A stretch of DNA of 64,000 nucleotides, from NCBI RefSeq assembly GCF_026914265.1, contig NC_069133.1:48609355-48673354 (forward strand), read 5' to 3'. The notes under the pieces are model-generated. The model did not search any database and was not told the origin of the DNA. It was given only the letters and a program-made list of their open reading frames with translations. The DNA comes from Mya arenaria. Taxonomy: Eukaryota. Each line of letters begins with the position of its first letter. Position 1 is the stretch's first letter. The translations under genes and the position numbers were made by a program. Below, piece after piece: positions 6,743 to 50,960 of the stretch.

Positions 6743-6911
6743 GTGTTTATTGTAATATAAGGCCACCAGCCCAGAATACATGTAACAAATTGTAGTATTT
6801 AGTACGTCAAATATGAACTATATTGGATATTTATAAAACATGTTTTATGTTGTTGCACAAATCAAGCATATCAAAGTAATGGTCATATACAAATATATGT
6901 AAACATATAAC

Positions 6912-6935
6912 CACACACACACACACACACACACT
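6912..6935. repeat. (CA)n microsatellite
   Basis: Direct reading. Confidence 0.85.
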
Positions 6936-7099
6936 CACATATACATATAGATAGTTCCATTTCATGTATTAGTAGTTGTACAATAAATTATCTGTGTAAG
7001 ATCAGTTGCTTTCTCAAATCGAATGCTTTATACACGAATTTAGTTAGCGAGAATATCTCACTAGTGGCATCAGTGCACATTATATTATTGAACAATTGA

Positions 7100-8650
7100 A
7101 AGCTTGAATGAGTGAGCCAGGTAGTCCGGAACAGTTCACGTCGTAAACCATCGTAAGAAGGACAGACCAGAAGAAAGTGGTACTCATCTTCTATTACATT
7201 GTAACCAGTACTCGAGCATAATGGACAGGATCGGATTTCCCGTGCAATATTCTAGTGTCTTCCTTTTTCTATCATATCAAGCGTATGACCTGAGCATCTT
7301 AAGTTTGCAAAACATTTTTTCCAAGGATATGGTAGGTCTATTGACAAATAACGTTCTGGGTCAAGAAGAGTTTTATAGTGTTTATAATGTTCAGCTTTTG
7401 GTGACGACTCAATATTTGCATACAAGTTCTGTATGGAACAGTCTTTCAACCTGTTCGTGAACATTTTCATGAATATGTTTGGTTGACCAACATCTTGCGC
7501 TATCCATGCGTATCCAAAGCCGTGTTCAAATATGATATTTTTAATGTGTGTTACCCAACTACTACGACCAGCATTATCCATATTCAAAAGCATAATGTAA
7601 CACTGACGTGGATATCTATTACTGGTCATGTTCATAATTTTGATCCAATATCTAACACATTTTGGAAGATAAATTGTCAGCATTGGTAGTCTACCACACT
7701 CGCTCAAAGCAAAAAAGTTTGAAACTGTTCTATTTAGCCCACACAGTTTCTTGCAGAAGTTATAATGCACTTTTTCTATGTTCTGGCAGTATTTGTATCC
7801 CCAAATTTCTGACGAGTAACATAAAATTGGCGTTACCATAGAGTCGAATAGTTTAAACGCATCTTTGATATGAAAATGACCAAAATGATTTTGGTAGCGG
7901 AATATAACTGAAATTGCTTTCGTTACCTGTTTTGAAAGATGATCGGTTGTCATAGCCCATCTTAATTTAGGCGTAAAAAATGAGCCGAGGTACATATATG
8001 ATGACACAACTTCAAGTTGTATTTCCCTGTACCACCATCTTTCATAATGCCGCAACGTGCCCCCGTTTCGGAAAACCATTACTTTTGATTTGTCCGTATT
8101 AATGTTCATACCTGTGCTGTCACAGAACCTATCGATAAGGTTAATTTGAGCTTGTAGATTACGGGCTCTATATATATACATGGGTGGTAAAAATAACACA
8201 TACAATTGCATAAGCCATATACAGTTAAAATGTTTTCTAGTTCTTAAGTTTTACACAATATAATTTTACAGGCGGATAGCGGATGCGTATTAAATGGTTA
8301 CTTATTATGGACCCGTGCACAAGAAATACAATTCGTACAAAGGTTCCTGTTTTCGCCTTCGTTTCGTCGCTCCTTCGCCTTCGTATCTTCCTGTCTTCGC
8401 CTTCGTCCCTTCGCTCCTTCGCCATCGTACTTTCCTGTCTTCGCCTTCGTCCCTTCGCTCCTTCGCCTTCGTACTTTCCTGTCTTCGCCTTCGTCCCTTC
8501 GCTCCTTCGCCTTCGTACTTTCCTGTCCTCGCCTTCGTCCCTTCGCGTCTTCGCTCCTTCCAGTAAGGGCGAAGACACGATGGCCCTACCGGTAATCTTT
8601 CTCGCACTCTCTCGGCTCGAACCATACTCACAGTAACGCAGAAATGCATA
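7100..8650 (-). mobile_element. 5'-truncated non-LTR (LINE) retrotransposon fragment: C-terminal part of the reverse transcriptase/ORF2 (ORF 7252..8211 minus strand) plus degenerate upstream region
   Basis: The 319-aa ORF carries LINE RT C-terminal hallmarks: NINTDKSKVMVF, YLGSFF, and a downstream ...LRCSGHTL... region like the LRTGH motif of many LINE ORF2 tails. The upstream RT core domains are absent from the ORF, so the element is truncated or decayed. Confidence 0.6.
8356..8565. repeat. 44-bp tandem repeat x about 4.7 (ccttcgtcccttcgctccttcgccttcgtactttcctgtcttcg)
   Basis: Direct reading. Produces frame-shifting R/E-rich pseudo-ORFs on both strands. Confidence 0.85.
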
Positions 8651-10314: not shown

Positions 10315-10366
10315 ATGTCAAGCAGAGGGAGTGAAAATCCATTGCTGTCAAAATGGACAACAACAG
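10315..10366 (+). CDS. TEP1: TEP1-like exon 1 (ATG; [18 protein letters not shown]), putative
   Basis: ATG followed by a short ORF ending at a GTAATT donor. Phase 1 matches the next exon. The assignment is inferential. Confidence 0.4.
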
Positions 10367-13300
10367 GTAATTTGCTTGTATAAATATATGCAATTCTATA
10401 TTATATACTGAGTATACATTTGTACATGTACAACTATTGGTTTCTAATATGTAACATATCCAATAACTACTAGTCGCCCATCAATAGGGCATACTTTTCT
10501 TCTAATTTTAAGGCTTTTCTAAGGGAACATGGAAACAATTTCTAAAGCACTGAAAGTTTCATAAAATCTTTAATCAACATCACTTTAAAGCTGCATTCTC
10601 ACAGATTGAATGTTTTGACAACTTTGTTATTTTTATACCCCCACAAACGAAGTTTGAGCGGGTATATAGGAGTGAGCTTGTCGGTCGGTCGGTTTTCATG
10701 GTTTCCGGACGAGAACTCATGAAAGGCTAGACAGATTTGAAAATTTTTTGGTACACAGGTGTAACATCATGAGATACAGGTCAAGTTCGATATTGGGTCT
10801 GGTGGGGCCAAGGTCAAGGTCACTGTTACTAAAAATAGAAAAACGGTTTCCGGACAATAAATCATGAAAGGCTAGACAGATTTGAAAAATTTTTGGTACA
10901 CAGGTGTAACATCAGAAGATACAGGTCAAGTTCGATATTGGGGCTGGTGGGGCCAAGGTCAAGGTCATTGTTACTAAAAATAGAAAAACGGTTTCCGGAC
11001 GATAACTCATGAAAGGCTAGTTTTTCTTGTCAGCAGTGTAACTTCTAAATTACTCAACAGATTTAAATAAAACAATACATGCATGATAAAAGAAGATGCA
11101 GTGTGCAGTAACCTTGGAGTTATGGCCTCTTTTCAAAGGAATGGTTTGCCATTCCTGTGTCCAGGCGGCATTTGGGGGTATTCGTCACTCCTGTGACAGC
11201 TCTAGTTTGTCTTGGAACAAGCCAATTTTTGGGTAAAAATCTAGGGAAACCAGTTATTTAAGACTGCTGACAAAAATTTAGATCACAGATTTTTATATTT
11301 AAGTTTAAAATTGATGTTTTATGCATTTTTCTTAAACCGTTAGTAACCGTAAAAAATTAATTTTCAAACGGAAATATGAAAATCTGCGATCTGATCTTTT
11401 GTCAGAAATCTTTAATCATTAGTTTGCAGATATTTACGCAAAAATTTGCTCTTTCCAAGACATGAAATAAGAAAGTTGTAAAAATGTTATATCTGTGAGA
11501 GTGCAGCTTTAAGAAGTACATATGCATATAATTTTAACTGTATTTCAATAAAACATTTTTTTTTTTTGGTTCAAGAATTACACAGCTTTTGATATATGTT
11601 GGTTGTCTTGCATAATTAAAATAAAACTGACTTCATCTTAGGATTAGCTGGCTCTCTCCAGTCATCCACACTTTTATCAGGGAGTGTTGGTCAGGACACG
11701 CGAAAACGGAAACCAGATAGCAAGAAATCAGATGTTTGTGAAAAAAAGTCTCGAGACAGCCTCCTGTCTGGCCTCACAGGCAACACATTGCTGGGTAGTA
11801 CTGGTTCAAAGTCTACAATGCTCAGTGAGTAATCATGTGCTGGTGACTATTTGATAGTCATTTTTCATTATGTGTATTTCTCCATTTTTTCCTTAGGGCT
11901 ATTCCAGTTAAACATATGTCCCACCCCAGGACGGCAAAATAAAGAAATTCTGTAGGGGGTAGGTCTTTTTCTTAATTTGCTACTGTAGGGGGTGGTGATA
12001 AGTCCAATTTCGCTTCTATAGGGGGGCGTCATTTTCTTTTTTGCTTTTGACCGTATCTGCTCATTTATATTCACTGCCCGATGGTGAAATACCGTTTTTT
12101 TTTATCCATATAACATATTTTACCGAACGTCGTGTACAGAATTGGTTTGGATACAAATCTTCGCGATATTACGCGTCGGTTCCGCGGTACCGGAAATCAG
12201 AAGAAGTTGCGTCCTTTGACAACAAGATGGCGGAGGCGCCAGAATTTGTAAAGTCGTGACCAACCTACAAAATTGGCTAGAAACCAATAGTTGCGCCGCA
12301 TGTGTGGATACGTTTCGTGGTAAGTATACCAAATTGCAGTGTTCGACACTAACGGGGTCCCGGGATCCCGAGGACACCAGTTTTTCAGGAGGGACACCTG
12401 AACTTCGAAGTCCGGTATTCCGTCGGGACACTTTAAATTTCTGACTGATAAACGCTAAATATCAATAAATAAGTAGCATTTAATTAATTTATTACCTAAA
12501 TTCGGGCTCCCTAAATTTCTTGACAGCACATGTCAAAACAATATTATTAATTATCATTATCGGACTCATCAAAGCCACGGATAGGTCCGTGTCAAAGCGA
12601 AAGTATAGCTGACTATTTGACTATAGTTACGTCATGAATCTATAAATAAACAGGTCATTTCACAGGCGCATGCAGGTTAACGCTTCCGTTTTGTTGTTTA
12701 CATTTTAAACAAGGTCAGAGCTGACAGAGATTTATTATCGGTAAAATACTTATGTGGAATTGTTTTGCTTATGTGTCAGAACCGCCCAAAAAGATGCCAA
12801 CTCTGATGATACCTTTTATATAATATGATGCGACCTTTGAGTATTTACAGTAACATTTACGACACAAAAGAACTGCATCCTACATTCAGCATTCTTTGTT
12901 AATTGGCATTCAACTTATCAATATTCTTTGTTAATTTTAAAGACATATATTTTATGCCTTGATAAAAAATAATAGAAATAAAATTTGCAGGGTTTTATTC
13001 ATTAATTCAATAAATTTATAAAATTTTATGACTTTTTGGCGCGAAAATTAACATGTATACACAATTTTTGGTCGTCTGCTCTTCCAGTATGCACTACGAC
13101 TGTTGGGCAGTCTGATTGATTTATCAACAGCTCTACTAAATATTGATTGGAGTTTTCACAAGCCAGATGTAATATTCCTACAGTTTCTTAATGAAAAGCA
13201 CCGACATTTGACAAGACCCTGAACCATGATGTATTTTATGCGTATTTTCCAAAAATCTAAAAATAGTAACAACATCAAGTTTTTGTTTACATTGTATCCA

Positions 13301-16300
13301 TCTCTGTTTTTGACTGAAAACAAAAGGGACTTAAGACATTCTCCCGCTTTTGAACCCAATCTACCAACTTAGAGACCAAAATATACCTCACTGCCATTCA
13401 GTGCTACTAACCTGTCATTACATGCTGCTGAAAACATGTATAATAATTATGGTGGTTTATACTTGCATTACAAATTGAAAAGTAAAAGGATGTTGAATTT
13501 AATATTAAAACAGGCTCAACAATGAAAAAATGTAAAAAGTGGAAGGGACTCCTAATTTCAGGAAGGGACACCTGATTTCAAATGTTGGTGTCCCTTCGGG
13601 ATCCCTTGGAAAAATGGTTAGTGTCGACCCCTGAAATTGACAACAGTTGTCTAGAATTTTATTAGAAATCATAATTTGTACGTATTGCGTAAATGTTATA
13701 AATCCGAATGTTTCGTCCCCTTAACATTTCGACCACAAGTTATTTTAAGGTTGTATATAATTACATGGGTGAAAGTTTCAGCCTCATGTGGCTTAATATG
13801 CACTTATAGCAAATATGAAGAAACAAGAGAACCGTGGTGTGTAGGTTATAGTCCATATAATGGAAAATAACCAAATTTATTAATGGAAAATAACAAAATT
13901 TATTACAAGCGAAGCCCAGTAATAAGTTTTGTTATTTTCCATTACATGAGCTGTAACCGACTTATAGTTCACCCTAGTTTCTAAGCCAATCATCGAACAA
14001 GGCCGTATACAGCGTGCCCATTGGCTGCTCGAAGTTCATTTGGCGCGCGCCATGTCTGTTGACCTAGTTATAATAATTAACTTATTGGATGCAGATGTGA
14101 TCTTATATGAAACCTATTCGAGCAAAGATTTGAAAATCTCTGGGTGATGATTGGCTTAGAAACTAGGGTGAGCTATAAGGTCCTATATAGCTCACCTGAT
14201 CAAAGAGTTACAAAAGAGTAATTGCAAATAATCTTTGCATATAGACGTATAAAAAAATAAACTTCTCAAGGGGGTCCGAATTTGCTCAAAAAATATTCTA
14301 AAGGGGGTTCTTTTCTCATCAAATAAACTTCTGAAGGGGGATGGTCCATTTTGAAAGTGCCTTCCTGGGGTGGGACATATGTTTTACTGGAATAGCCCTT
14401 ACATGAATACTTCTTTTTTTTTGTTAATACATTGTACACAATATAAAATATATGCAAGTTTATACCATGCTTTTCATAAACTGTAACATTTCTAAGATAA
14501 TTATGCAAAAACAAGGTTAGTTGATAGGGAATTTCATGTTAAGGGCTGAACATAAACTACATGCCATGTATGCTTTTTGTTTTTTAATTGTTAAAAGTTG
14601 ATTTCAATATGCTAATAGATGAGAAATTCACAGTTTAAGCTGAAAACACTACTGTATATAAAATATAAACTGGGAACAATAACCATCCTAATCCTACTTC
14701 CAGATGGAAACTGAGTAGCATTGAGTAGATATACATGTACAAATACAGCTATCATCTTTTTTTGTTCTAAAATACAGGCAGGGGAAATTTAGGGTTTTCC
14801 CTTACTTCGAGTCTTCTGAGCAAGCCCAGTACGGACAGTGACGACCAAAAACGACCTTTCTCCCAGCTCAGTAACTCAACCACTTCTAGCTTCTCTTCAA
14901 CACTTCTTAAGGTACTGGAACATGTATACCAATAGAATAAAGAAGCTGTGTATGCTAAAAACATTTGTATACTTTATACCTGGGAAAATGTTCAATATAT
15001 ATATATAGAAACTTGAACAAGTATAATACTGAAAATAATGAGGGAGTACACCTCACCTCACTTCTAGAGTTATCTGAGTTGCATTGAAAGTTTCAATGAT
15101 TGAGATGAATTACCGTTTAATCAGCAAATGTAACCATATCATATTTAGATAAGTTTAACATCATGCACATTTTTTTCTGCTAGCATATATGTTTAAAGTA
15201 TTTTAGATTACTTTAATTTTGTGAGGTTTTATTTTTGCTTTTATCCTCCATTATAAAATATTTCTCACTGCAAATTTCAATTCTCGCTCTAAGTAAAAGC
15301 TGCACTCTCACAGATAGAAAGTTTTGACAATTGTTTATATTTTTGTCTTGGAATGAGCCTATTTTTTATGACAATCCATGGAAACCAGCTATATAAGACT
15401 GCTGGCAAAAATTTAGATTGCAGATTTTAATATTTAAGTTCAAAAAGTGATTTTTTATGCATTTTTCTTAAACCGTTAGTAACAGTTTAAGCCATTAAAC
15501 ATTAATTTTCGAATGGAAATATGAAAATCTACGATCGTTTTTTTGTCAGCAATCTTATATCATTGGTTTTGGGATATTTACGCAAAAGTTTGCTCTTTCC
15601 AAAACAAAAAATAAAAAAGTTGTAAATATGGTTCATCTGTGAGAGTGCAGCTCTAAGCAACAAATAGTGTAATTTAAATTTAGTTTCGAAAAACATTCAA
15701 TTATCATCATAATATTCAAAGTGGATTGTGCTTTTCAGACTGGATTAACCCTTACTGGAAACACGTCATCAACAACTAGATCAACAGGATCATGCTTTTT
15801 GTCACATGGCAACAGTTCCCTGGCAACAGGCTCTTCTTTAGCAGCCACAGGTTCTTTAGCTATAGGGTCAGCTTTAACAAAAGGATCCACACTAATGAGC
15901 CGTCAAGGGTTACAGTCCACTAATTTGGGCTTAACTTCAGTAAAATTAGAATCATCCTCTCATCTTGGCCTGTCAACAGGAATTTCAAGCACATTGCTGT
16001 GTAGTGTCAGCACTGGCTCAGCAAAAAGTGGTGGGCGTAAGATCAAAACTGGTGGCAAGAAAAAAGAAAAGTCAAGAAAGAAAATCAAACTAGGCAAATA
16101 TGAGGCCCCTACTCCAGAGTATAACCTGACCAATGAGGTGCCAGCAGTGAAAGAAATCTCAATGCCGAAGTTTACACCCCCTGATTTAGACAGGACCCTA
16201 ATGGCTGGGGCAAAACTGCATGATGTTAATGGGATGAAGGTATTATGAATTAATATTTTATATATGTTATGCAATATGCATGTAGATAATTAGACATTCT

Positions 16301-19300
16301 AGAAGTGTATTGTAAGTTCTTGTTGTAGGATATTATTGATCTTTGTGCTGATATTTGTTGAAATATCATTTACTTTCTTTGATAAATGGGGCCATATTCA
16401 TCAAGCATCTTAGTGAATATTTTCAACTGAGTGAAGAATTCTTAATTTTTGACAACAACTATTTTAAATACTCTCTTTTTTTAGAACGTTTTCGGTAAAA
16501 AAAATGCAATTTGAAAATTGTCACTAAGATTCTTAGCGAATATGACCCCTGATGCTTATTTTGTGTCATATTAATTTTTGTATGAGTGGTGTTATTTCCT
16601 TTTTGTCACATTCTTTATGCTTTACTATTTTTGGGGTTTGACACAGTCATACTTAAATGAATTGGAATATTGATACATGTAGTTTATGGATACTCCTAAT
16701 TTTATAGTCAATTAGTTTCTTAAATAATACTTAAATGAAATCTTAAATCTTCAAAACCCTTTGTTTTCAGTTTGCTCTGGTTAATGCAGTGAGTGGTTCT
16801 CTGATTTGTCAGCCAGACTTCAAGTCAGGAGCTGACCCAACCCGCGTTACCTTGGTTACAATGTCAGAGAAGGTCATCTGTTATGACCCGGAGTTCGTTC
16901 TGAAGGTGAGTGCAAAAATCAGTCCTAAGTTTAATTGGCTTTGAAATTATCATGTCTTTTTAACAGAGCTATGCTGAATTTTAAAGAGAAAAAAAGTGGG
17001 TTATTGCAGGCTTGATTTTATGGTTGTTGTTACCTTAAACCTTTATTCTTGTTGGTCATGATGGGTATCAAACACACAACCTGTTTGATAAGAGGCAAAC
17101 ACCTGGTAAACCAAAATACCACTCTTTTTTTATTTAATATTTATGAAGTCATAATGCACTTAAAAAATATATCTACTTGCCATGCTCTATCATATGTTTT
17201 TATCATTCTGTTTATAATACAGTGTGTTTCTTTAAATGGTTTAACCATCAATCTACATGCTTATAATGTAGAGCCAGAAGTTAAAAAATGCAACACACGT
17301 CTTTGGAATTTTAGCTAGCGCTATACAGCAGGAAGCAGTTGAATATCCGGACAACAAGCAACTTCCTTCTAGCCCTGGCCTCCCATATACCGGCATGTAG
17401 ACCGTACCTGAAGAGATACTTCAACGTCTCAATAGCCCTGCCCTCAGACTGGATTGAAGTTGCTGAGATATACTCAGTATGTCCATACAATTATATGTTC
17501 TTAATAGGATCATTTCATTCACTTTCTGTTGAAACTAAACAGTAAGTTATTGCCTTTGTCTTGTCATTTTGAGTGATACAGTATCATTTTTTACAGTTTT
17601 TATTTACTAGTAGTTCCATTTTAATTTTATGCAAAAGGTTTTCTTATTGCTTTATATGCTATATAATAACAGTTATAATGGGACAATAGTATGTTGGCCT
17701 TGGATATAGTTAAAGGCATATCATTGATGTCCTAAAATTCATCTTTTTTGAGAAAATAACTTAAGAAATTTACAAAATGTTGTCATAATCTTGACTGTCT
17801 AGTTACAAAAGTTTGAACACCTTTTATCTTAAGACAATGTTAACCTGGAACATGTAGTTATAGTTACGGCACCCACAACCCAAGTTATTAAGATTATACC
17901 AGAATGTTTCTTTACAACTGTATAACTTTAATTTAGAGAATTGAGGGTGACGTAACTGTTTTTCTCCATGTTGTCATGGTCAACATTCGATAAGGCCCAT
18001 GCCAACGGTTACCATTCAGATATGGTAGTACATGTAAATGTGCTGACATAAACAAAGAAACACTCTCAAACATGGTACAATTGAGAGTTATATCACAAGT
18101 ACCTACTTTCAGGCATTCCCTGAGAAGACTCTGCCCCTTGGTTCCCTTCCATCAGCTCTACGGAGAGCCATGGTGAACAAATTCCCGGACTTTGACAAAT
18201 ACCAGTTGGGTAAGCAGAGATATTCACATGTACTGTACTATTGACCGGAAAGCATCATTTTGATCTTTAAAAATGTCAATGAAATGATTACATGTATGTA
18301 AATTGACTTTGAAGGAGAAAAGCAGTACTTTATAAATGGCCTAATCTAAATCTAAACTTGGTAAATTTCAGTTTACGTCCTGATAGAACTAGGATGGAAA
18401 AAAGTACACCGGTAGATTTCATTTGTATAGGTTTTGATTTAAGTATGTGTAATAGACTGATTAAAATCTTGCTATTGTGTTGCCCAGTTTAGGCAGATTT
18501 TGGTATAAAACCTTTTTATTTTTAATGTAATTTAGCCAAGTACAACAAGGAGAGCTCCGGCAAGAAGAAGAGAAAGAAGGAGAGGCTGCAGAAAGAGCAG
18601 TCAGGGGAGGCAACCAGAGGTGGAGGCAGGGGAAGGTACTCTAGACTGTTAAGGAGTTGTAAATACAGTTAGCGGTAATAATAATAATAATGTTATGCAA
18701 TAATAATTAAAAAATCAGAGCAGTCAACCCGAGTTGGAGGAGGGGAAGGTAACTGTGTTGTTATTCAGAACATATTATTAGGACATTTCTCAATTCAATT
18801 TACTTCTGTGAATTGATATGATTATGTGTCCATCTGTCACCTCAGAGGTTGTGAGTCCCCATCAGTCCCCAGGGGTGCTCCCTCATGGACACCCTAAGGG
18901 CCTACATTTACCATCACCTTCAGTCAGACTCTCAAATGGGCAATTAACAAGCTATATCATGTTACAACAACACTTTGGCTATATGTTAAACAAATTTCAA
19001 ACTCAAACTTACATGTGTTTCTCTATATCAAGGGGCCGAGGTGCGTCTCGGGGATCACGAGGTGGCCGTGGGGCCAGCAGAGGGGCCAGGGGCGGGACAC
19101 AATCTGCCCCAGCAGGGAAGCCAAGAAAACGATCCATGCTGGATTCTGACACCAGCAGCTCTGAGTCTGACTCTGAATCTGACTCTGACTCTGATGAAGA
19201 GTATGAGAAATATAAGAAGGTAGGTTTGAGAAGGTTTTTGTTAGGCCAATTTTGTATTTGAATGTACCAGTAGACTGGACACCTTGAATTGTAGGTACTA

Positions 19301-22300
19301 ATTTACCATAAAAGTACAGATAATTCATACCCTTAATATTATGGTTGACTTGAAATTCATCATGATTTTTTTTGAATATTCAACAGAAGTGATTTGATTA
19401 AGTTGAACAAAAAATTCTAAGAATTTGATATATAATCATAATTATGAGATATGATAGATGTTTAGAAACTAACTACATACCATTCTTCCACATGTATATG
19501 TTTGTCTTCCAGGACATTGTGTATGATGATGGAGAGAGCCCTGAACAGTTACAGAAGATGAGCTTCACCCTGAAGCAGCTTATCCGGAAACTACACATCA
19601 CCGAGCCAGTGGAACATGTCATGTGCCTTATTGGGAAAAAGTAGGTCACTTGTACATTGGTACATGAGAACATATTGTAGGGTTATAAGGCTTATACATG
19701 TAGTAGTCTTAAATAATAGATGTGTTAAACTTTTTTTTCTCATCCCTAACATAGTGAAGGATTTGCCATATAAAAAATCATAAAAAAATCTGTCCACGTA
19801 CAATTATTAAGAGTAATACATGTAGATAACAATACTGCATGTAGCTTGGTAAGTGGAGCATGTCAGGTGTGTCATTGAAAAAAGTAGGGCCGTGTATTGA
19901 TACATAAAAATATATTGTAGGTATGTTAAGGCGTATGTGCATGTAGGTACATAATTATACTGCATATCACTTGGCCAGTGGAAAATATGATATTTCTAAT
20001 TGGCAAAAAGTAGGTCCGTTGAGTACATGTGTATTGATACATAAGAACATGTTGAAGGGATGTTATAAAGGAATGTACATGTTGTTGATACATAAATTAA
20101 ACATCACTGAATATATCCTACGTGTTGAGTGTGCCTTTATAGGTAGGTCATTTATAGTGGCATCATCTTGGTGTATACCAACTTTTGATCATTACACAGT
20201 GTAACATGCCATATGCTTCATTGAGAAAAGAAAGCTGAGTTCCGTCATAGTCAACTTCTGGTTTTCATTGATAACTCAATTTTTTGTGGCATGGTGTCTT
20301 GTTGCTTAAGTTTGGGAATCTGGGTCACAAGGGCACTTGAATTGAAATGAAATCTTGCACTTCATTCTTGGTCAAGGGTGCTTGTTCTTATAACTATGTA
20401 AAAGAAAACACAACTCCTAGTGCATCATTGATCCACTGTGGAATAAAGGTTCAAGCCGTATAAAATGGTATTAAAATGACCTTGTTTTCACCCTTGATAA
20501 CAGTAAACTATCATAAGTTAATTATGTAATCACACTAAATCATTTAAATGACAAAACTTATCTTCATGAAACTTGATGTATATGTTGGTCTCGCATTCCA
20601 GGTACCCAACAACCCTAGAAGAGTTTTACAGATGCCGGTTACCAGGAACATTTGATGAAGAGCGAGCTGGAAAGCGTATGAAGCTGCCTGTCCCAGAGAC
20701 ATGGGAGACTCAGGTGTCACTTAAGGGGAACAAGGCAGCGACATGGCAGGAACTGCTAGGTAGGGGGACTTTTAACTTAGATATAGATTCACATGAAATG
20801 ACACATAGTTTATGTGTTTTTATACTGAGCCAATAAACTCTTTGGAGACCCAGGTGGCCATTCCACCAAAAATCCTATATACCCTTTCATAAAACTTGCG
20901 GCATACAGGGGGATGAGCAGCTTAATGCTTTAATCTTAAACTTTGAAAACCAATATGTGGTTTTAAAGTGTAGGAATTAAAGACATTGGAGAAATGTTAA
21001 GCTTGCTTTTTTGAGAAAGCAGTTAAGAAACATAATAAAAAATAACATTTTTCCACAGTATTCCAAAGTAAGATGAGAAATGTAAGAAAGAGCAAATCAT
21101 CAACAAAGAAACAATGCAATTAACCTGTGGATGTTTTGCACAAGAAAGATTTATTTTTCATGACACTACCAATGTGTTAATCTAAATCCATGTGATATTT
21201 GCAGATCACAAGAAGTTACCCTTCATGGCAATGTTGCGTAACTTGAGAAACCTGATTAAAGCTGGGATCTCCTCCAAACACCACACTGGGATCATTCGAA
21301 GGCTCACTGATGATGTAAGGTTATAGAGAACATCTTAGTCATGGAATGTGTCACACAGCAAAACTTAAACACACATTGGTTTTATATTATTTTCTTTATT
21401 ATATAGTACAATTCATTCTTGAACTTGTTTTCAAGGTTAGGGTTTTCTGACTTTGGCCCAAAATTTGTGACATTGGTCAAATTCACACATAATTATTCAA
21501 AATTATTGTATCTATTTCACTCTAACAGTACTGTTACCGATATGCAGAATTGGTAATCCTATTTTTCATATCTTTTAATGAAATGCATACTTATATGCAT
21601 CCAGAGGCATAATTGTTATTTACAGTTGCTTCTCAAGCTCCAGATAGTGTTTTGAAATTACACATTTATAGAAATATTTATGTACATACTTTGAAAATGT
21701 GAAGCGCAAAACAAGTGACCTTCAACTGTATAACTACATAATTTACAACCTTTTATCAAAGTAAAGACACTGCACAAATGTTCACAAATTCATGACATAA
21801 GTGTCTACAGAAGCTCTCAAAACTTTCTTCAGTCAAGAACACATTCATGTTCATGGTTTTAACCACTTGAGCATGAGCCAATTAACATCCATTCTCTATA
21901 CACATTGTGAACATTGCAAATTGATTTTGATAAAGGGTAGTACTACATCTGTTAACACTTTTGTTACAATGTTTTTTTCAACCATTTTGAGTTGGGCTGG
22001 GGCTTTTTAGATTGGGAAAAATACCTCATTTTGACTAAAATTGACAGTTTGTGTGATCAAGTATATTTCTATTTGTGTTAGCAGTCAAATTGCCATGCTA
22101 AATTGGTCAGAAAAGACACTTTATTGTAAAGACTATGTTAACATTTACATGACTGTATTGAATCAAAGCTAAGGTGACATTGTATTACACTATAGTACCA
22201 TAACCCTTTTTCCATCTTTCAGAGACAAGTAATCAACAGCAAGCAGTTTCCATTCAGATTTTTCTCAGCTTATGAAGTACTGGAACAACTTCAAAAGGAT

Positions 22301-25300
22301 TATGAAACATCCCGTAAGTTAATGTTAATGGACCATAGCAGTTTATGGTTTGTTCAGGAAACTTAGGAAAAATCATCAGAGAAAAATGCTAGCTATTTTC
22401 CTTGCTGTGATCTTGTCTGTGGCTGGGTTGCTCATATTTTTTTTAACAATAACTAAGTTTTAAAGAACTAAGTCTTAAGGTAGTTGTATAGCTGTCCAGC
22501 TTTCACCTATAAGGTCATGTGTTCAAACCCCACCAGGGACACATTCTCTCGACCAAAAAGGCCCAGTTGTTTTCTATCCATAAAACAGACTTGAGGGTTT
22601 ACATCAGCTGTCAGGTTTCTTCACAATCGAGTGGAACTATATTAATATAAACTGACATGGCAACCATGGGGGGCAAACAACTATGCTTGTGAAAGTAGAG
22701 AATTCACAGTAAATTACTTATACTGGATACATTATCCAATGTATCATCTCAAAAAATATTATTATTATTATTTCCCAGAGGCAGCTATAATAGCAGAGGC
22801 TGAAGAAATGGCAGCTGGTGGAGGCCAACCTAAGCATACTAAGGCGAAGAAAGAGAAACTGACGGCTGACAACTGGTGGGCCATCAAGAAACAGAGGAAA
22901 AAGGAGAAGGACAAAAAACCAAAGTGAGTCTGATTGTTTTTGTGAAGGATTTGGTATCATCTGCAAATACATGAGACAAATTGGTATAAACTTGTCCAGC
23001 ATTCGTGTCATCATCAACACTGTCATTCATTTCTGATCAATGATACTTTTGAATAATGTTTTAAAGATTTTTTAGGCTTGGTTCGCTCCTTGGTTATGGT
23101 CAGTAGATGACCCTAGGTGACCCCATTTGATTTTAGGGTCATGAGTAGATCAAAGCCAAGGTCATGACAATATTTATTGCCCCTTTCAGCCATCACTTTT
23201 GTTTTGCAAAATTCTAGTTTTAAATTACATATCATTTCTTTTAATATATGTAGTCTTTTATTTGCAAACATTGTGGATTAGCTGGTGTGGAATTAGTTTT
23301 GGTCATTTCCTTGATTTCAAATTAATTTTATAAAATCTAAAACATTAAAACATAGAATTGTTTAGTATATTTTTATCATGAAATGATAATTTGATGTATC
23401 TTTGGTAGGGGGGTAAATGCTTGCCTGTAAACCACACTTGTACCATGTTTAAGAGAGTTTTCTTGGTGTGCGTCTCTGCATTATCCTCCACATTAGAATG
23501 GTAACAAGAAGGCGGAGCATACCCATGCAATTAATAGTGTTGAGGATATGACAATGCTTTTCATTTATAGAAATGCTTGTTATTGAACGTTGTCCTTGAC
23601 AACATGGTACAAACAGTTACTAGTGATTAAGTTTATACAACTCACGCTTTGTGTTATGTAGAATTGTTATAGTTCTAGTAGCAGTGGCAGTTAATATTTC
23701 TAATTAAAAACTTGAATCAAAAAGCCCTAGACACATCTGTGACGAGAGCCACAGTGTACAATGTTGCTAGACTGAGCAGGAAAAGTTTTTTGTGTACCTC
23801 AGAGCTAAACAAAAATGATATCCACATTTCAGGGAGACGCCTTTTGACTCGGGAATCATAAACCGGTACAGGAAAGCCCTAGACACAGCTGTGAAGATTG
23901 CAACTGTTTACAATGTGGCTCCTATCAGAGGAAGGACTTTAATACTGTGTAATGTCAGTTCAGCAATGGATGCTCCCTGTACAGCAGCTCGAGGGCTCGG
24001 AAAACCAAGAACTGTAAGTTCAAAGACAAGACAAACAAAATTAAAATACATACATGTATGTGGTAATAAAGATACCGTGTATAACTGGCTGAGCTTGATC
24101 AGAAAAAGAAGACAACTGTGAAGTTAATCTGCAATTTAAGATATAATCATTTAGAAATTGCATAACAAATGTTTTGTTTATTTGAAATACAAAGAAAACT
24201 TAGCTCATAAATAATTATGTTGATTAGTATGTTTATGAGATACCAAAACTGAGAATTTTTAAAATAGACATCTGCATACCCCAATACATGAAGTAGTCTG
24301 TGAGCATTTGAAAACAACAACATGTTTTCCATTCTATATTACATAGAGTATTTATTGACCTTATTTTTAGATGAGGGAGGTATGCATCCTTCTGGGTCTG
24401 ATGTGCAAGTATTCATGCGAGGACAGCACCATGATCATCTTCGACTCAGACCTGTCTAGATACATCAGCGTGAAACCCAAAACTGGCACAATCTTGGAGA
24501 ATATGCGACTCGTGTTGGAGACTGATGTCACTGAGGGTCGTCTTGGGAACTTCAACGAGGGTCTACCCATGGAGATCTTGTATGACGGTCTGCGAGATAG
24601 AATACAGGTTGATCTTTGGAATCCTTGTGGTTTCATTTCTTTGTTTAATGTTTTTTATATAAGTTTATTCGAGCAGCACTTTTAAAAGGCAATCAAAGGG
24701 ATATTGCTGTACACAGCTTATAAAAGCTCAACAAAGCACGAACACTTGGGCTCATATGAAATGTAAGAAAATCATGTTAAAAAATTGTTGTATCGATGTA
24801 AGAAAAATATTATTCACATGTTTATGTGAGCAATAACTTGCATAAATATACATTATAATTAAGTTGAAGTCTTACGTAATAATATCTCTCTAAACAAGGT
24901 TCCCACTATTCTATCTGAACCTTATATTGTTTTTACCTGTCATATTGGCTTAGTTACCACGTCTGTTTTTCAGAGACAGAAAGTTGAGGAACTGTCATTG
25001 TCTTGGTTTTCACAACGATGTCATTATAAGGGAAAAAATAACTCCATAATTGCCATATCTCAAAAACTGTTGATTGTCTTTTGTTCAGCAGTGCTCTTGT
25101 TTTCTATTGGGCTAAGGATAAAAATCATTTAAGATTAATCATTTAAAATATTCATACGTTCAGTACAGAACGGAGAGAAATTATATTTTGTAAATGTAAA
25201 TGCAAAAAAAATGTACCCAAAGTACCGGTACTTCCAAAGCTGATATTCTTCAAATTAACTCTCCATTTCAGATTGACAACCTGTTGTTGATGACCGTGTC

Positions 25301-50293: not shown

Positions 50294-50960
50294 GTAAATG
50301 ACTGGGTATTAGACGCACTTTTTTCCCTCAGATTTTGATGCAAAAAAATGCCTGCGTATAATACCCAGTAACAATTTTTTGAACTTTTTTTCTGAGGTCA
50401 ATTTCAAGCCGAGAGTTTGTTTAGATTTATGTAGAAAGGGATGTTACTCGCGTCATATTGATCGAGTATATACGGGTTAAAACGGCAGTTGAAGATCGGG
50501 ATACGGTATATCGTAAGACGTTTATAATTTCAACAAAAATATTTTTCGATTAAAGTTACCGTAATTCACCTAAGAGTTCGGACACTCTAAATATTTGGAC
50601 ACCCATAATTATTTCCCCAAATAATTTATTTTGCGTACCTAATTTTCGGGCACCCAAAGGACATCAATCATAACTTTCATAGTTACCAAGTTTCACAGAC
50701 GAAGATTATTGATTTTTATCTTTACAATGCCTGGCTAGATTACCTAACCGTTTAGTTACTACCCATCCTAAACGATTTATTGCCTGTTGAAAAGGAAGTG
50801 TGTAACTAATCCCTGAACTTGTTTCCAGGTTGGACATTTCTTCTGCCTCTCCCCTGTAACAGCCATGTGTCTGCTTGGACCTTACAAACACTGTCATCAT
50901 GTGCCACTGGCGTACGGGGATGAACTGGGAAATGTCAACATGCTCTTGTGGAGAACTTCA
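10315..50960 (+). CDS. TEP1: Span of a multi-exon gene (about 50 coding exons, about 2.6-2.7k aa) encoding a telomerase-associated protein 1 (TEP1)-like protein: S/T-rich TEP1_N-like N-terminus, TROVE module, vWA-like segment, DUF4062-like segment, NACHT NTPase, WD40 repeats
   Basis: Exons are listed below. Every junction has an AG acceptor and GT donor, and intron phases are consistent across all about 50 exons. Motifs readable in translation: [13 protein letters not shown] (TROVE-like), [17 protein letters not shown] and [14 protein letters not shown] (DUF4062-like), [11 protein letters not shown] (Walker A), [12 protein letters not shown] (Walker B), and multiple GH...WD/IKIWD WD40 units. 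Confidence 0.8.
10586..11512. mobile_element. MITE-like element copy 1 with about 20-bp terminal inverted repeats (AAAGCTGCATTCTCACAGAT … ATCTGTGAGAGTGCAGCTTT). It contains an internal 153-bp tandem repeat. Located in TEP1 intron 1
   Basis: Both termini are exact reverse complements. The about 300 bp at the right end is about 85% identical to copy 2 at 15340-15656. Confidence 0.6.
10701..11025. repeat. About 153-bp tandem repeat x about 2.2 inside MITE copy 1 (GGTTTCCGGACGAGAACTCATGAAAGGCTAGACAGATTTG…)
   Basis: Unit starts at 10701, 10854 and 10990. Confidence 0.8.
11642..11824 (+). CDS. TEP1: TEP1-like exon 2, S/T/L-rich ([30 protein letters not shown]...)
   Basis: tcttag acceptor and GTGAGT donor. 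Composition matches the TEP1 N-terminal repeat region. Phase is consistent with neighbours. Confidence 0.45.
11895..14400. mobile_element. About 2.5-kb structure bounded by about 130-bp inverted repeats (11895-12030 versus the reverse complement of 14265-14400) with further nested inverted repeats (12340-12430 versus 13535-13640; 13950-13995 versus 14147-14185; palindrome 13870-13930). Foldback-type or TIR DNA transposon candidate in a TEP1 intron
   Basis: Exact reverse-complement blocks, for example AGGGCTATTCCAGTTAAACATATGTCCCACCCCAGG versus CCTGGGGTGGGACATATGTTTTACTGGAATAGCCCT. There is no transposase ORF. Confidence 0.4.
14778..14911 (+). CDS. TEP1: TEP1-like exon 3, S/T-rich ([28 protein letters not shown]...)
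   Basis: atacag acceptor and GTACTG donor. Only phase 1 entry gives an open frame, and it ends in phase 0 to match exon 4. Confidence 0.5.
15296..15656. mobile_element. MITE-like element copy 2 (same TIR family, about 360 bp, no internal expansion), ending about 80 bp upstream of TEP1 exon 4
   Basis: TIRs AAAGCTGCACTCTCACAGAT … ATCTGTGAGAGTGCAGCTCT. The internal sequence is collinear with copy 1. Confidence 0.6.
15739..16239 (+). CDS. TEP1: TEP1-like exon 4, long S/T/G-rich low-complexity region plus KKKEKSRKK basic patch
   Basis: Open frame of 167 codons matching the supplied ORF 15721..16248. cttttcag acceptor and GTATTA donor. Confidence 0.7.
16771..16905 (+). CDS. TEP1: TEP1-like exon 5 ([45 protein letters not shown]), start of TROVE-like module
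   Basis: ttttcag acceptor and GTGAGT donor. 45 codons, phase 0-0. Confidence 0.8.
17315..17476 (+). CDS. TEP1: TEP1-like exon 6 ([36 protein letters not shown]...), TROVE-like
   Basis: ttttag acceptor and GTATGT donor. 54 codons. Confidence 0.8.
18113..18209 (+). CDS. TEP1: TEP1-like exon 7 ([32 protein letters not shown])
   Basis: tttcag acceptor and GTAAGC donor. Ends in phase 1. Confidence 0.7.
18536..18635 (+). CDS. TEP1: TEP1-like exon 8 ([33 protein letters not shown]), basic
   Basis: tttag acceptor and GTACTC donor. Phase 1 in, phase 2 out. Confidence 0.65.
19033..19219 (+). CDS. TEP1: TEP1-like exon 9 (RG-repeat then acidic [12 protein letters not shown] tract)
   Basis: atcaag acceptor and GTAGGT donor. 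In frame with the supplied ORF 18818..19261. Confidence 0.7.
19513..19640 (+). CDS. TEP1: TEP1-like exon 10 ([43 protein letters not shown])
   Basis: cttccag acceptor and GTAGGT donor. Confidence 0.75.
20602..20759 (+). CDS. TEP1: TEP1-like exon 11 ([52 protein letters not shown])
   Basis: attccag acceptor and GTAGGG donor. Matches the supplied ORF 20573..20836. Confidence 0.75.
21205..21314 (+). CDS. TEP1: TEP1-like exon 12 ([37 protein letters not shown]), TROVE-like
   Basis: tttgcag acceptor and GTAAGG donor. Confidence 0.8.
22223..22313 (+). CDS. TEP1: TEP1-like exon 13 ([30 protein letters not shown]), TROVE-like
   Basis: ctttcag acceptor and GTAAGT donor. Confidence 0.8.
22779..22923 (+). 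CDS. TEP1: TEP1-like exon 14 ([49 protein letters not shown]), Lys-rich linker
   Basis: ttcccag acceptor and GTGAGT donor. Phase 1 in, phase 2 out, consistent with both flanks. Confidence 0.6.
23833..24013 (+). CDS. TEP1: TEP1-like exon 15 (…[46 protein letters not shown]), vWA-like
   Basis: catttcag acceptor and GTAAGT donor. Confidence 0.8.
24371..24607 (+). CDS. TEP1: TEP1-like exon 16 ([27 protein letters not shown]...[10 protein letters not shown])
   Basis: tttttag acceptor and GTTGAT donor. 79 codons. Matches the supplied ORF 24371..24685. Confidence 0.8.
25272..25414 (+). CDS. TEP1: TEP1-like exon 17 ([48 protein letters not shown])
   Basis: atttcag acceptor and GTATGT donor. Confidence 0.75.
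26100..26171 (+). CDS. TEP1: TEP1-like exon 18 ([24 protein letters not shown])
   Basis: tttgcag acceptor and GTACCC donor. Phase 2-2. Confidence 0.7.
26521..26679 (+). CDS. TEP1: TEP1-like exon 19 ([53 protein letters not shown])
   Basis: tttaaag acceptor and GTATGG donor. Confidence 0.7.
27219..27395 (+). CDS. TEP1: TEP1-like exon 20 ([59 protein letters not shown]), DUF4062-like
   Basis: tcttcag acceptor and GTATGA donor. Matches the supplied ORF 27262..27453. Confidence 0.8.
27910..28158 (+). CDS. TEP1: TEP1-like exon 21 (…[38 protein letters not shown]…)
   Basis: accccag acceptor and GTAGGT donor. Matches the supplied ORF 27875..28162. Confidence 0.85.
28676..28789 (+). CDS. TEP1: TEP1-like exon 22 ([38 protein letters not shown])
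   Basis: ctttcag acceptor and GTAAGA donor. Confidence 0.75.
29135..29255 (+). CDS. TEP1: TEP1-like exon 23 ([41 protein letters not shown])
   Basis: aatttcag acceptor and GTATAA donor. Confidence 0.75.
29832..30014 (+). CDS. TEP1: TEP1-like exon 24, NACHT Walker A (…[37 protein letters not shown])
   Basis: tttttcag acceptor (the upstream catgcag acceptor would give an in-frame stop) and GTAAGT donor. The P-loop motif is clear. Confidence 0.85.
29920..30170 (+). repeat. About 95-bp tandem triplication. Copy 1 is the 3' end of the Walker A exon plus its GTAAGT donor. Copies 2 and 3 are intronic, and each retains GTAAGT
   Basis: …catctcactacctggaaaacctggaacagggaaaactgctttgctgGTAAGT / …catctcactacctgaaaaacctagaacagggaaaactccattgctgGTAAGT / partial third copy. 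Confidence 0.8.
30393..30568 (+). CDS. TEP1: TEP1-like exon 25 ([48 protein letters not shown]…)
   Basis: cttcacag acceptor and GTAAGC donor. Confidence 0.8.
30943..31090 (+). CDS. TEP1: TEP1-like exon 26, NACHT Walker B (…[30 protein letters not shown])
   Basis: ttttttcag acceptor and GTATAT donor. Confidence 0.85.
30990..31345 (+). repeat. About 120-bp tandem triplication. Copy 1 is the 3' end of the Walker B exon plus donor. Copies 2 and 3 are decayed intronic copies (GGATGGATTTGA/TAACATGGA…CCAAAAG GTATA…)
   Basis: Direct alignment by eye of three units. Confidence 0.75.
31501..31677 (+). CDS. TEP1: TEP1-like exon 27 ([44 protein letters not shown]…)
   Basis: tattttcag acceptor and GTTCGT donor. 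Matches the supplied ORF 31447..31686. Confidence 0.8.
32161..32253 (+). CDS. TEP1: TEP1-like exon 28 ([31 protein letters not shown])
   Basis: ccttttcag acceptor and GTAAGT donor. Confidence 0.75.
32902..33034 (+). CDS. TEP1: TEP1-like exon 29 ([45 protein letters not shown])
   Basis: caccag acceptor and GTAAGA donor. Confidence 0.75.
33700..33867 (+). CDS. TEP1: TEP1-like exon 30 (…[55 protein letters not shown])
   Basis: ctctttcag acceptor and GTAAAG donor. Confidence 0.75.
34719..34930 (+). CDS. TEP1: TEP1-like exon 31 (…[45 protein letters not shown])
   Basis: atattag acceptor and GTAAAT donor. Confidence 0.8.
35314..35534 (+). CDS. TEP1: TEP1-like exon 32 ([40 protein letters not shown]…)
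   Basis: gtgtttcag acceptor and GTAAAA donor. Matches the supplied ORF 35293..35538. Confidence 0.8.
35842..36022 (+). CDS. TEP1: TEP1-like exon 33 ([31 protein letters not shown]…[11 protein letters not shown])
   Basis: cttaatcag acceptor and GTATTA donor. Confidence 0.75.
36606..37082 (+). CDS. TEP1: TEP1-like exon 34, four WD40 units (…[11 protein letters not shown]…SIWDV…GHQRRVNSC…IKIWG…IKIWDV…)
   Basis: aaatag acceptor and GTAAGT donor. 159 codons. Matches the supplied ORF 36609..37139. Confidence 0.85.
37498..37617 (+). CDS. TEP1: TEP1-like exon 35 ([40 protein letters not shown]), WD40
   Basis: gctgtag acceptor and GTGAGT donor. Confidence 0.85.
38177..38423 (+). CDS. TEP1: TEP1-like exon 36 ([37 protein letters not shown]…), WD40
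   Basis: tattcag acceptor and GTGGGT donor. Matches the supplied ORF 38153..38452. Confidence 0.85.
39093..39348 (+). CDS. TEP1: TEP1-like exon 37 (…[57 protein letters not shown]…), WD40
   Basis: gtcacag acceptor and GTAAGT donor. Confidence 0.8.
39945..40065 (+). CDS. TEP1: TEP1-like exon 38 ([41 protein letters not shown]), WD40
   Basis: ttgttcag acceptor and GTATGT donor. Matches the supplied ORF 39904..40089. Confidence 0.75.
40683..40838 (+). CDS. TEP1: TEP1-like exon 39 ([52 protein letters not shown]), WD40
   Basis: ttttag acceptor and GTGAGT donor. Confidence 0.85.
41500..41628 (+). CDS. TEP1: TEP1-like exon 40 ([43 protein letters not shown]), WD40
   Basis: gttacag acceptor and GTAAGG donor. 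The donor was chosen to give phase 0 into the next exon. Confidence 0.8.
42231..42369 (+). CDS. TEP1: TEP1-like exon 41 ([46 protein letters not shown]-), WD40. The first AAG|GTGGGT donor is used
   Basis: tattacag acceptor. Only the first of the tandem GTGGGT donors gives the phase-1 exit needed by exon 42. Confidence 0.7.
42355..43150 (+). repeat. 36-bp tandem array x about 22 (GGTGGGTACATATCTGTGAAACTGGTAGAGGGCCAA). Unit 1 is the end of WD40 exon 41 plus its donor. Every unit carries AAG|GTGGGTAC
   Basis: Period of 36 bp, with the first unit 40 bp. Explains the supplied ORFs 42103..43128(-), 42621..43103(-) and 42928..43269(+). Confidence 0.9.
43444..43574 (+). CDS. TEP1: TEP1-like exon 42 ([44 protein letters not shown]), WD40
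   Basis: aattttag acceptor and GTGAGT donor. Matches the supplied ORF 43425..43658. Confidence 0.75.
43575..44110 (+). repeat. 151-bp tandem repeat x about 3.5, beginning exactly at the donor of exon 42. Each unit is a decayed copy of the exon 3' half plus GTGAGTAG
   Basis: GTGAGT recurs at 43575, 43726, 43877 and 44028. Units are …ctacatgtggtgataatggattggtgaaactttggtgcccattatgggtgacagGTGAGTAGGGAGCTGG…. Confidence 0.85.
44685..44887 (+). CDS. TEP1: TEP1-like exon 43 ([40 protein letters not shown]…), WD40
   Basis: ttttctag acceptor and GTGAGC donor. Confidence 0.85.
45347..45416 (+). CDS. TEP1: TEP1-like exon 44 ([24 protein letters not shown]), WD40
   Basis: atttcag acceptor and GTATTG donor. 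Confidence 0.8.
45925..46037 (+). CDS. TEP1: TEP1-like exon 45 ([37 protein letters not shown]), WD40
   Basis: gtttag acceptor and GTAATA donor. Confidence 0.8.
46480..46638 (+). CDS. TEP1: TEP1-like exon 46 ([53 protein letters not shown])
   Basis: ttattcag acceptor and GTGAGT donor. Confidence 0.75.
47384..47507 (+). CDS. TEP1: TEP1-like exon 47 ([42 protein letters not shown])
   Basis: tgtttcag acceptor and GTAAGC donor. Confidence 0.7.
47530..47680. repeat. About 48-bp tandem repeat x about 3 (…tctcagagacaaaagaaagtatatggtttttatggcata…) in a TEP1 intron
   Basis: Direct reading. Confidence 0.7.
48081..48254 (+). CDS. TEP1: TEP1-like exon 48 ([58 protein letters not shown])
   Basis: cttccag acceptor and GTAAGG donor. 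Matches the supplied ORF 48093..48296. Confidence 0.8.
48621..48734 (+). CDS. TEP1: TEP1-like exon 49 ([38 protein letters not shown]), WD40
   Basis: atgacag acceptor and GTAAGT donor (±1-2 bp). Confidence 0.8.
50243..50291. repeat. (TTA)16 microsatellite
   Basis: Direct reading. Confidence 0.9.
50829..50960 (+). CDS. TEP1: Putative terminal TEP1-like exon ([46 protein letters not shown]) with TAA stop
   Basis: gtttccag acceptor, phase-0 entry consistent with exon 49, open to a TAA stop. The assignment is speculative. Confidence 0.4.

Follow-up and report, generated by a model that had tools for sequence, protein, structure and literature searches.

The 64,000-nucleotide (nt) stretch of Mya arenaria DNA analysed here (the window: NCBI RefSeq assembly GCF_026914265.1, contig NC_069133.1, positions 48,609,355 to 48,673,354 of the forward strand, numbered below from its first letter) is AT-rich (~35% GC) and carries a run of short open stretches on the + strand between ~10.3 and 51 kb. 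When sequences related to telomerase protein component 1 (TEP1) were compared with the window by tblastn, the matches formed a strictly collinear series on the + strand, exon by exon. The unspliced open reading frame (ORF) pieces joined in order already matched the Pfam families TROVE, DUF4062 and WD40 as well as both TEP1-specific propeller families, all of them fragmented. The spliced model consists of 50 exons at 10315..50969 on the + strand, spans 40.7 kb and encodes a protein of 2733 amino acids (aa). A chance match is excluded, because TROVE becomes one continuous match (E 3e-106) only once the exons are spliced and falls into three broken stretches in the unspliced pieces. We are highly confident that the window contains an intact, single-copy-looking, full-length ortholog of TEP1, also known as vault protein p240.

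The gene model was built from scratch by combining stop-to-stop ORFs, tblastn of homologs against the window and the scoring of splice sites and phases. For this, GT and AG sites were scored under phase constraints with a penalty for lost ORF length, and ambiguous junctions were curated by hand against the homologs. The choice of junctions by splice score alone was rejected, as it picked many internal cryptic sites. All 49 introns are of the GT-AG type and all phases are consistent. The coding sequence of 8202 nt comprises 2733 codons and a stop, with no internal stops; the exons measure 52–501 nt (median 146.5) and the introns 293–2953 nt (median 559). A 49-exon version of 2693 aa, in which the exon ending before 45417 was joined to an AAG at 46486, a weak acceptor, was discarded since relatives carry an extra WD blade there: in the alignment to that version, the Dreissena fragment P0121 and a second relative, P0122, showed an additional blade of ~47 aa exactly at this position. 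The tblastn search located the missing blade at 45910–46017, and the DNA offers a clean exon there (exon 45 in Table 1). The phase-2 end of exon 45 agrees with a strong acceptor, the CAG at 46479, which replaces the AAG at 46486 for exon 46. No further unexplained gaps were seen when the final model was aligned with mollusc, amphioxus and vertebrate TEP1.

This independent reconstruction agrees with a preliminary description of the same DNA, made by a model from the letters alone, which had proposed a phase-consistent TEP1-like gene of about 50 exons. The four exon starts quoted there (10315, 11642, 14778 and 50829) were all recovered. Its gene end at 50960 has to be moved, as the last coding nucleotide lies at 50966 and is followed by a TAA stop at 50967–50969. 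The length it gave for the protein, about 2.6–2.7k aa, was close, with the 2733 aa of the model lying slightly above it.

Table 1. Exons of the Mya arenaria TEP1 gene, all on the + strand. A slash in a sequence marks a splice boundary; P numbers denote retrieved relatives; percentages are tblastn identities unless stated otherwise.
Exon	Position	aa	Region	Evidence and remarks
1	10315..10366	1-18	ATG 10315; phase-1 end	donor CAG/GTAATT; NPLLSKW vs SLLSKWS in oyster P0019 and Solemya P0004
2	11642..11824	18-79	serine/threonine (S/T)-rich, LLS motifs	acceptor catcttag/G, donor TCA/GTGAGT; collinear with P0019; possible in-frame alternative acceptor 11680
3	14778..14911	79-123	S/T-rich	phase-consistent GT-AG; within P0019 alignment
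4	15739..16239	124-290	S/T-rich, basic patch, LHDVNGMK lead-in to TROVE	cf. PLHDVNGLK in oyster, DDINGMK in Solemya
5	16771..16905	291-335	TROVE start	P0004 259-315, 53%; Pfam TROVE
6	17315..17476	336-389	TROVE	59-75%; junction set by homolog alignment
7	18113..18209	390-422	TROVE	56-67%
8	18536..18635	422-455	basic stretch, RGG box start	AKYNKESS in all relatives; donor AAG/GTACTC at 18636; possible alternative donor 18620
9	19033..19219	455-517	RGG box (aa 449-476), acidic Ser/Asp run (aa 492-513)	like insert in P0019 and P0004; unusual AAG acceptor 19032, junction uncertain
10	19513..19640	518-560	TROVE	56-80%
11	20602..20759	560-613	TROVE	68-75%
12	21205..21314	613-649	TROVE	81-89%
13	22223..22313	650-680	TROVE	50-82%
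14	22779..22923	680-728	variable Lys-rich linker	phase-consistent GT-AG; aligned to variable linker of relatives
15	23833..24013	728-788	Pfam TROVE end; start of segment earlier called vWA-like	64%
16	24371..24607	789-867	segment earlier called vWA-like	37-47%; weak donor CAG/GTTGAT
17	25272..25414	868-915	in DUF5920 (PF19334) match	tblastn P0004; Pfam DUF5920
18	26100..26171	915-939	in DUF5920 (PF19334) match	donor GAG/GTACCC resolved by hand: SDQILR/FIAERG continuous as in homolog consensus SDQILRFIAERG
19	26521..26679	939-992	linker to TIR-like domain	38-48%
20	27219..27395	992-1051	DUF4062/TIR-like start, R1005 (27256-27258)	63-85%; aligned to PDB 11gz_A
21	27910..28158	1051-1134	TIR-like, R1073 (27974-27976), E1105 (28070-28072)	62-67%; SVTELE and SVTEME aligned in 11gz_A comparison
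22	28676..28789	1134-1172	TIR-like	tblastn; PDB alignment
23	29135..29255	1172-1212	TIR-like end (YPCDWAG)	46-48%; PDB alignment to chain residue 218
24	29832..30014	1213-1273	NACHT, Walker A GKPGTGKT (29982-30005)	Pfam NACHT and AAA_16; tblastn; 3' end and donor duplicated downstream
25	30393..30568	1274-1332	NACHT	39-43%
26	30943..31090	1332-1381	NACHT, Walker B (31001-31030)	42-43%
27	31501..31677	1382-1440	NACHT end (SPFNNQ)	49-52%
28	32161..32253	1441-1471	helical and winged-helix region	68-76%
29	32902..33034	1472-1516	HTH_NWD1-like winged helix	58-59%; Pfam HTH_NWD1
30	33700..33867	1516-1572		phase-consistent GT-AG; no gap vs relatives
31	34719..34930	1572-1642	helical domain	P0001, 45%
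32	35314..35534	1643-1716	APAF1_C-like helical domain	P0001, 43%; Pfam APAF1_C slightly below cutoff
33	35842..36022	1716-1776	linker to WD40 region	P0001, 43%
34	36606..37082	1777-1935	first WD40 propeller	P0001, 48%, E 1e-34; Pfam WD40
35	37498..37617	1936-1975	WD40	tblastn P0040; strong donor CAG/GTGAGT
36	38177..38423	1976-2058	WD40	tblastn P0063; aligned to vertebrate TEP1
37	39093..39348	2058-2143	WD40; TEP1 second propeller start	tblastn P0040; Pfam PF25047
38	39945..40065	2143-2183	TEP1 second propeller	PF25047 continuous over exons 37-42
39	40683..40838	2184-2235	TEP1 second propeller	tblastn P0040 and P0063; donor AAG/GTGAGT
40	41500..41628	2236-2278	TEP1 second propeller	aligned to P0122
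41	42231..42369	2279-2325	TEP1 second propeller	P0122, 62%; donor AAG/GTGGGT at 42370, exact end uncertain
42	43444..43574	2325-2368	TEP1 second propeller end	P0121, 61%; donor CAG/GTGAGT; degenerate copies downstream
43	44685..44887	2369-2436	third propeller	P0121, 59%, E 3e-19
44	45347..45416	2436-2459	WD40	tblastn P0122
45	45925..46037	2460-2497	WD40 blade	P0121, 56%; acceptor tttag/GCC, donor AAG/GTAATA
46	46480..46638	2497-2550	WD40	tblastn P0121; phases consistent
47	47384..47507	2550-2591		P0121, 58% over 24 aa; donor CAG/GTAAGC
48	48081..48254	2592-2649		P0121, 61% over 23 aa; donor AAG/GTAAGG
49	48620..48733	2650-2687	Beta-prop_TEP1_C start	P0121, 51%; Pfam PF25048
50	50829..50969	2688-2733 and stop	Beta-prop_TEP1_C end	P0121, 56%, E 7e-11; PF25048 to its end; motif common with relatives

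The Pfam analysis of the 2733-aa translation found TROVE (PF05731; 356.6 bits) as one stretch at aa 291–761, covering positions 21–442 of the 442 in the profile. The following segment, previously called vWA-like, matched a single family, DUF5920 (PF19334; 41.9 bits, cutoff 27, aa 864–967), and mollusc and vertebrate TEP1 align collinearly with it here. The vWA label comes from the published architecture of human TEP1 (bioRxiv 10.64898/2026.05.01.722283), and we assume that the PF19334 match corresponds to the vWA segment; a family-profile search of PDB gave no match to Ro60 or to any vWA structure. Then come DUF4062 (PF13271; 59.5 bits, aa 993–1209) and NACHT (PF05729; 34.1 bits, cutoff 26.7, aa 1259–1425), the latter with the two motifs quoted in the preliminary description, Walker A at aa 1263–1270 and Walker B at aa 1352–1361. 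In the PDB search the family profile reached the nucleotide-binding domain (NOD) of APAF-1 (E 7e-9). Beyond NACHT lie an HTH_NWD1 domain (29.3 bits) and a sub-threshold APAF1_C-like helical domain (21.7 bits). The C-terminal region, aa 1777–2733, contains 12 WD40 stretches that would make up about three propellers, and it includes both Beta-prop_TEP1_2nd (PF25047; 226.6 bits, profile positions 2–255 of 255) and Beta-prop_TEP1_C (PF25048, positions 1–73 of 73; 146 bits with the complete WD region as query and 95 with the C-terminal 498 aa).

In the variable insert of TROVE, an RGG box precedes a run of acidic and Ser residues (Ser/Asp; 18616–19207, aa 449–513). A similar insert is present in oyster and Solemya TEP1 and is not found in the human protein. 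This stretch might serve as an extra RNA-binding element.

The relatives retrieved were all partial entries of no more than 1873 aa, as compared with ~2600–2700 aa for a full-length TEP1. With a rough TROVE-to-NACHT concatenation as the query, the top named matches were 'telomerase protein component 1' of Plakobranchus and Elysia, which showed 50–56% identity together with a 'hypothetical protein' of Solemya. Amphioxus TEP1 followed with 48%, and sharks, fishes and mammals with 33–40%. Taken over the best relatives as a group, molluscs and amphioxus lay at 50–59% and vertebrates at 33–40%. The search with the C-terminal 458 aa retrieved the Dreissena fragment P0121 (44% identity) and P0122. 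All the named top matches were TEP1 proteins carrying TROVE, and no NWD1- or APAF1-type protein without TROVE was among them, which agrees with the TEP1 identity put forward earlier.

We also considered whether two adjacent genes had been fused in the model, namely a Ro60/p80-like TROVE gene (exons 1–19) and an NWD1/APAF1-like DUF4062-NACHT-WD40 gene (exons 20–50). Both kinds of protein exist separately: TROVE-only proteins of ~650 aa occur in many eukaryotes (P0076–P0120), and animals have DUF4062-NACHT-WD40 proteins without TROVE (NWD1 and NWD2). However, top relatives (P0001, P0002, P0003, P0007, P0013 and others) unite TROVE and DUF4062 with a NACHT-type P-loop NTPase (PF05729, or PF24883/PF13191) in a single protein. 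In P0001, P0002 and P0004, the collinearity with the window extends over the boundary between exons 19 and 20. The splice sites at this junction are good and its phase (2) is consistent, the linker with SDQILRFIAERG is kept as a single unit in the family consensus, and the WD40 part matches propeller families specific to TEP1. We thus give the fusion almost no credence. Membership in two known groups was rejected. The NWD1/NWD2/APAF-1-like STAND proteins do not fit, as the clam gene has TROVE, joined in phase with the exons for DUF4062, and the top matches carry TROVE; Ro60/TROVE2, a protein of ~540 aa with TROVE and vWA only, does not fit either, as ~1740 aa with TIR-like, NACHT and WD40 parts extend beyond aa 992, where the TROVE/DUF5920 part ends.

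The ends of the gene were examined separately. The first 290 aa (10315–16239) are S/T-rich and have no Pfam match. On one rival reading, the core gene is TEP1, and exons 1–3 would be foreign to the transcript or non-coding, with the start lying elsewhere: they are S/T-rich and of low complexity, gave no tblastn match at default settings, and the acceptor of exon 2 has an in-frame alternative. With the composition correction off, aa 6–295 of the model aligned to aa 4–300 of the oyster protein P0019 (Saccostrea, 'telomerase component p80-like') with an E-value of 1.6e-26. The N-terminal NPLLSKW has a counterpart, SLLSKWS, at the N-termini of the oyster and Solemya proteins and a partial one, NPLLS, in amphioxus. 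Two in-frame stops lie 3–4 codons upstream of the ATG at 10315, and the 290 aa that precede TROVE fit the 230–300 aa of relatives. A different start is therefore improbable. At the other end, the last exon aligned to the C-termini of P0121 and P0122 and reaches the final position of PF25048. Since both ends are homologous to TEP1 relatives, the end exons appear to belong to TEP1, and their origin from other transcripts is unlikely.

About seven xLL[S/G/K/C] motifs recur in the N-terminal region (NPLLSK, STLLSG, DSLLSG, NTLLGS, SSLLSK, STLLKT and STLLCS). The N-terminus of amphioxus likewise has recurrent motifs of the NPLL[S/G/H] type, and those of bivalves have recurrent LLS-type motifs. Such motifs might correspond to the TEP1_N repeats of mammals.

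The DUF4062 domain has been described as a TIR-like NADase of bacterial antiphage systems and of human TEP1 in vaults (bioRxiv 10.64898/2026.05.01.722283, 10.64898/2026.09.04.749371). In mammalian TEP1 it converts NAD+ or NADP+ to ADP-ribose(-phosphate) and nicotinamide, and its activity rises on oligomerisation (same two sources). In the human protein E1008 is catalytic, while R908 and R976 contribute to activity (bioRxiv 10.64898/2026.05.01.722283). The clam segment (aa 993–1209) aligned to 11gz_A, the solved structure of this domain from human TEP1 ('Telomerase protein component 1'), with an E-value of 2.7e-60 over chain residues 3–218 of 220. With the human numbering transferred through gorilla TEP1 (P0018), E1105 corresponds to E1008, R1005 to R908 and R1073 to R976. 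From these conserved catalytic residues we infer that clam TEP1 would hydrolyse NAD+ and NADP+. Of the active-site residues of the human NADase, the catalytic Glu and two out of three arginines are thus kept in a distant invertebrate lineage, and this conservation supports the view that NAD+ hydrolysis may be ancestral in TEP1.

Several observations weigh against reading the locus as an intact TEP1 that works like its mammalian counterpart. The third active-site arginine, human R954, is replaced by K1051. Several junctions are placed by consensus and homology alone, namely the acceptors of exon 2 and of exon 9 (the latter an AAG) and the donors of exon 16 (weak) and of exon 41 (inside a repeat). 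The Pfam family TEP1_N (PF05386) had no match on the spliced protein even at E ≤ 1; the domain order given in the preliminary description stands for TROVE, DUF4062, NACHT and WD40, all recognized by Pfam, and the TEP1_N-like repeats at its start are not Pfam TEP1_N. Among the retrieved relatives, PF05386 was confined to the mammalian entries P0017, P0018, P0055 and P0104, and the mollusc, amphioxus, shark and fish TEP1 proteins were without it; the TEP1_N repeats therefore look lineage-specific rather than family-defining. Finally, genes for the partner RNA, MVP and PARP4 were not found within the window, and because of this we infer the vault association entirely from mammalian TEP1.

It should be noted that three tandem arrays begin within exons of the gene. 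A 95-bp tandem duplication at 29936–30162 (2.4 copies, 87% matches) starts inside the P-loop exon 24 and copies its 3' end with the donor CTG/GTAAGT. The second copy keeps the donor and has a 1-nt deletion with loss of the P-loop reading; splicing at this second donor would lengthen the transcript by 95 nt and change the reading frame. A 36-bp minisatellite at 42342–43155 (22.5 copies, 87% matches) begins within exon 41, in its final 28 nt, and the ~22 donor-like AAG/GTGGGT units that follow make the exact end of this exon uncertain. At 43478–44081, a 151-bp unit is present about four times. Its first copy is the 3' two-thirds of exon 42 with the donor CAG/GTGAGT, and copies 2–4 keep the donor and contain indels (-6, +7) as well as a TAG. 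The overlap of three arrays with donor boundaries, estimated roughly, is not clearly beyond chance. The duplicated donors after exons 24, 41 and 42 might serve regulated unproductive splicing.

These arrays, which copy exon 3' ends and donors into the downstream introns, together with two junctions that have weak or unusual sites, could also be taken as signs of a decaying, non-functional TEP1 copy (a pseudogene) or of splicing disrupted by the tandem donor duplications. Against this, the 8.2 kb of coding sequence stay open and in phase through every one of the 50 exons, the Walker A and Walker B motifs and the catalytic Glu are intact, and conservation peaks at functional motifs (81–89% identity in exon 12 and 63–85% in exon 20). 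In each duplicated exon end only the first copy is intact, the others having stops, indels or a frameshift, as expected under selection for the authentic exon. A pseudogene is accordingly very improbable. The gene is an ordinary animal TEP1 ortholog, a member of a well-known family and not a new kind of gene. The model is mainly of annotation value and raises no new question alone; it offers a complete, hand-checked 50-exon structure of a gene that automatic pipelines usually give in fragments.

The closest sequences found were those of predicted mollusc TEP1 proteins (Plakobranchus ocellatus, Elysia marginata, Solemya velum, Saccostrea cucullata and, as a C-terminal fragment labelled 'hypothetical protein', Dreissena polymorpha), with 50–59% identity over the TROVE-NACHT part and 44–50% over the C-terminus. 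Their database entries are partial, whereas the clam model is full length. The clam shares the N-terminal LLSKW motif and the RGG/acidic insert with the bivalves among these relatives. Human TEP1 (p240, 2627 aa) is of similar length and has its domains in the same order, beginning with TROVE and ending with the C-terminal propeller. The identity with vertebrate TEP1 over the TROVE-NACHT part is 33–40%, and the C-terminal motif LA.GD..GNV..L.W is common to both. Unlike the human protein, clam TEP1 has an S/T-rich xLL[S/G] N-terminus in place of TEP1_N. The literature search for mollusc TEP1 or vaults found nothing specific.

The TROVE module is also present in Ro60 (TROVE2), where it binds Y RNA and misfolded RNAs, and the PDB entries 9kop and 9l5y for TROVE domains were weak matches. 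Ro60-type and TROVE-only proteins of protists and bacteria are ~500–700 aa long and lack DUF4062, NACHT and WD40, whereas the clam gene has them all. NWD1/NWD2 and APAF-1 place an effector beside a NACHT/NB-ARC ATPase, helical domains and WD40 as in clam TEP1, with the catalytic Glu conserved; unlike clam TEP1, they and the bacterial DUF4062 proteins are without TROVE. When human proteins were tested, TEP1 was active as a NADase, while NWD1, NWD2 and NPHP3 were inactive (bioRxiv 10.64898/2026.05.01.722283). Bacterial defence proteins with DUF4062 (NIR), such as Avs, Swarozyc, Vulcan and Vesta, likewise carry a DUF4062/TIR-like effector next to NACHT/NB-ARC, and they sense phage proteins.

The TROVE domain of mammalian TEP1 binds vault RNA and telomerase RNA. 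By analogy, clam TEP1 most likely works as in mammals and would be a vault-resident, RNA-binding STAND protein with a TIR-like domain that hydrolyses NAD(P)+. Its TROVE module would bind a small structured RNA and the protein would lie within the MVP vault shell, as in mammalian TEP1. The TIR-like domain would hydrolyse NAD(P)+, more so when oligomerised, as in human TEP1, and the NACHT-WD40 part could plausibly govern this oligomerisation, as in APAF-1-like STAND proteins. We also entertained a more far-reaching proposal, that clam TEP1 acts as an RNA-gated, NLR-like NADase of innate immunity in which a particular small or foreign RNA, bound by the RGG-bearing TROVE, would trigger NACHT/WD40 oligomerisation and then NAD+ depletion by the TIR-like domain. 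This is improbable; if true, such a TEP1 would parallel the bacterial DUF4062 defence systems.

In an Rfam search of the whole window, no family reached its gathering score, and neither vault RNA nor Y RNA nor telomerase RNA was matched at this score or at E ≤ 1; a tRNA search of the window found none. The partner RNA may, as the preliminary description proposed, be encoded elsewhere in the genome. At E ≤ 1, three microRNA models gave sub-threshold matches: mir-297 at 6880–6950 (-) with 37.4 bits (gathering score 90), MIR6217 at 13881–13944 (+) with 26.5 bits (gathering score 110), and mir-980 at 56446–56518 (+), inside a tandem repeat, with 24.4 bits (gathering score 47). These weak matches are most likely due to chance.

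Upstream of the gene, an ATG-starting ORF of 319 aa at 7252–8211 (-) contains NINTDKSKVMVFRNGG and YLGSFF and gives the impression of the C-terminal part of a reverse transcriptase of a non-LTR (long terminal repeat) retrotransposon. The Pfam search gave no match for this ORF (E ≤ 0.001) or for another one at 5422–5856 (-). Downstream, a 36-bp unit repeated 155.7 times (94% matches) forms a 5.6-kb satellite at 58237–63836, which has a very strong GC skew (+0.5) and yields long artefactual ORFs in several frames. Kinship between this satellite and the 36-bp repeat of intron 41 was rejected, as they share 18 of 36 positions at the best rotation (p about 0.1). Other tandem repeats were seen in intron 1 (145 bp × 2.2, 10700–11020), upstream of the gene (44 bp × 4.8, 8344–8554), downstream of it (21 bp × 14, 56258–56554) and 20 nt past the exon 47 donor (82 bp × 2, 47528–47687).

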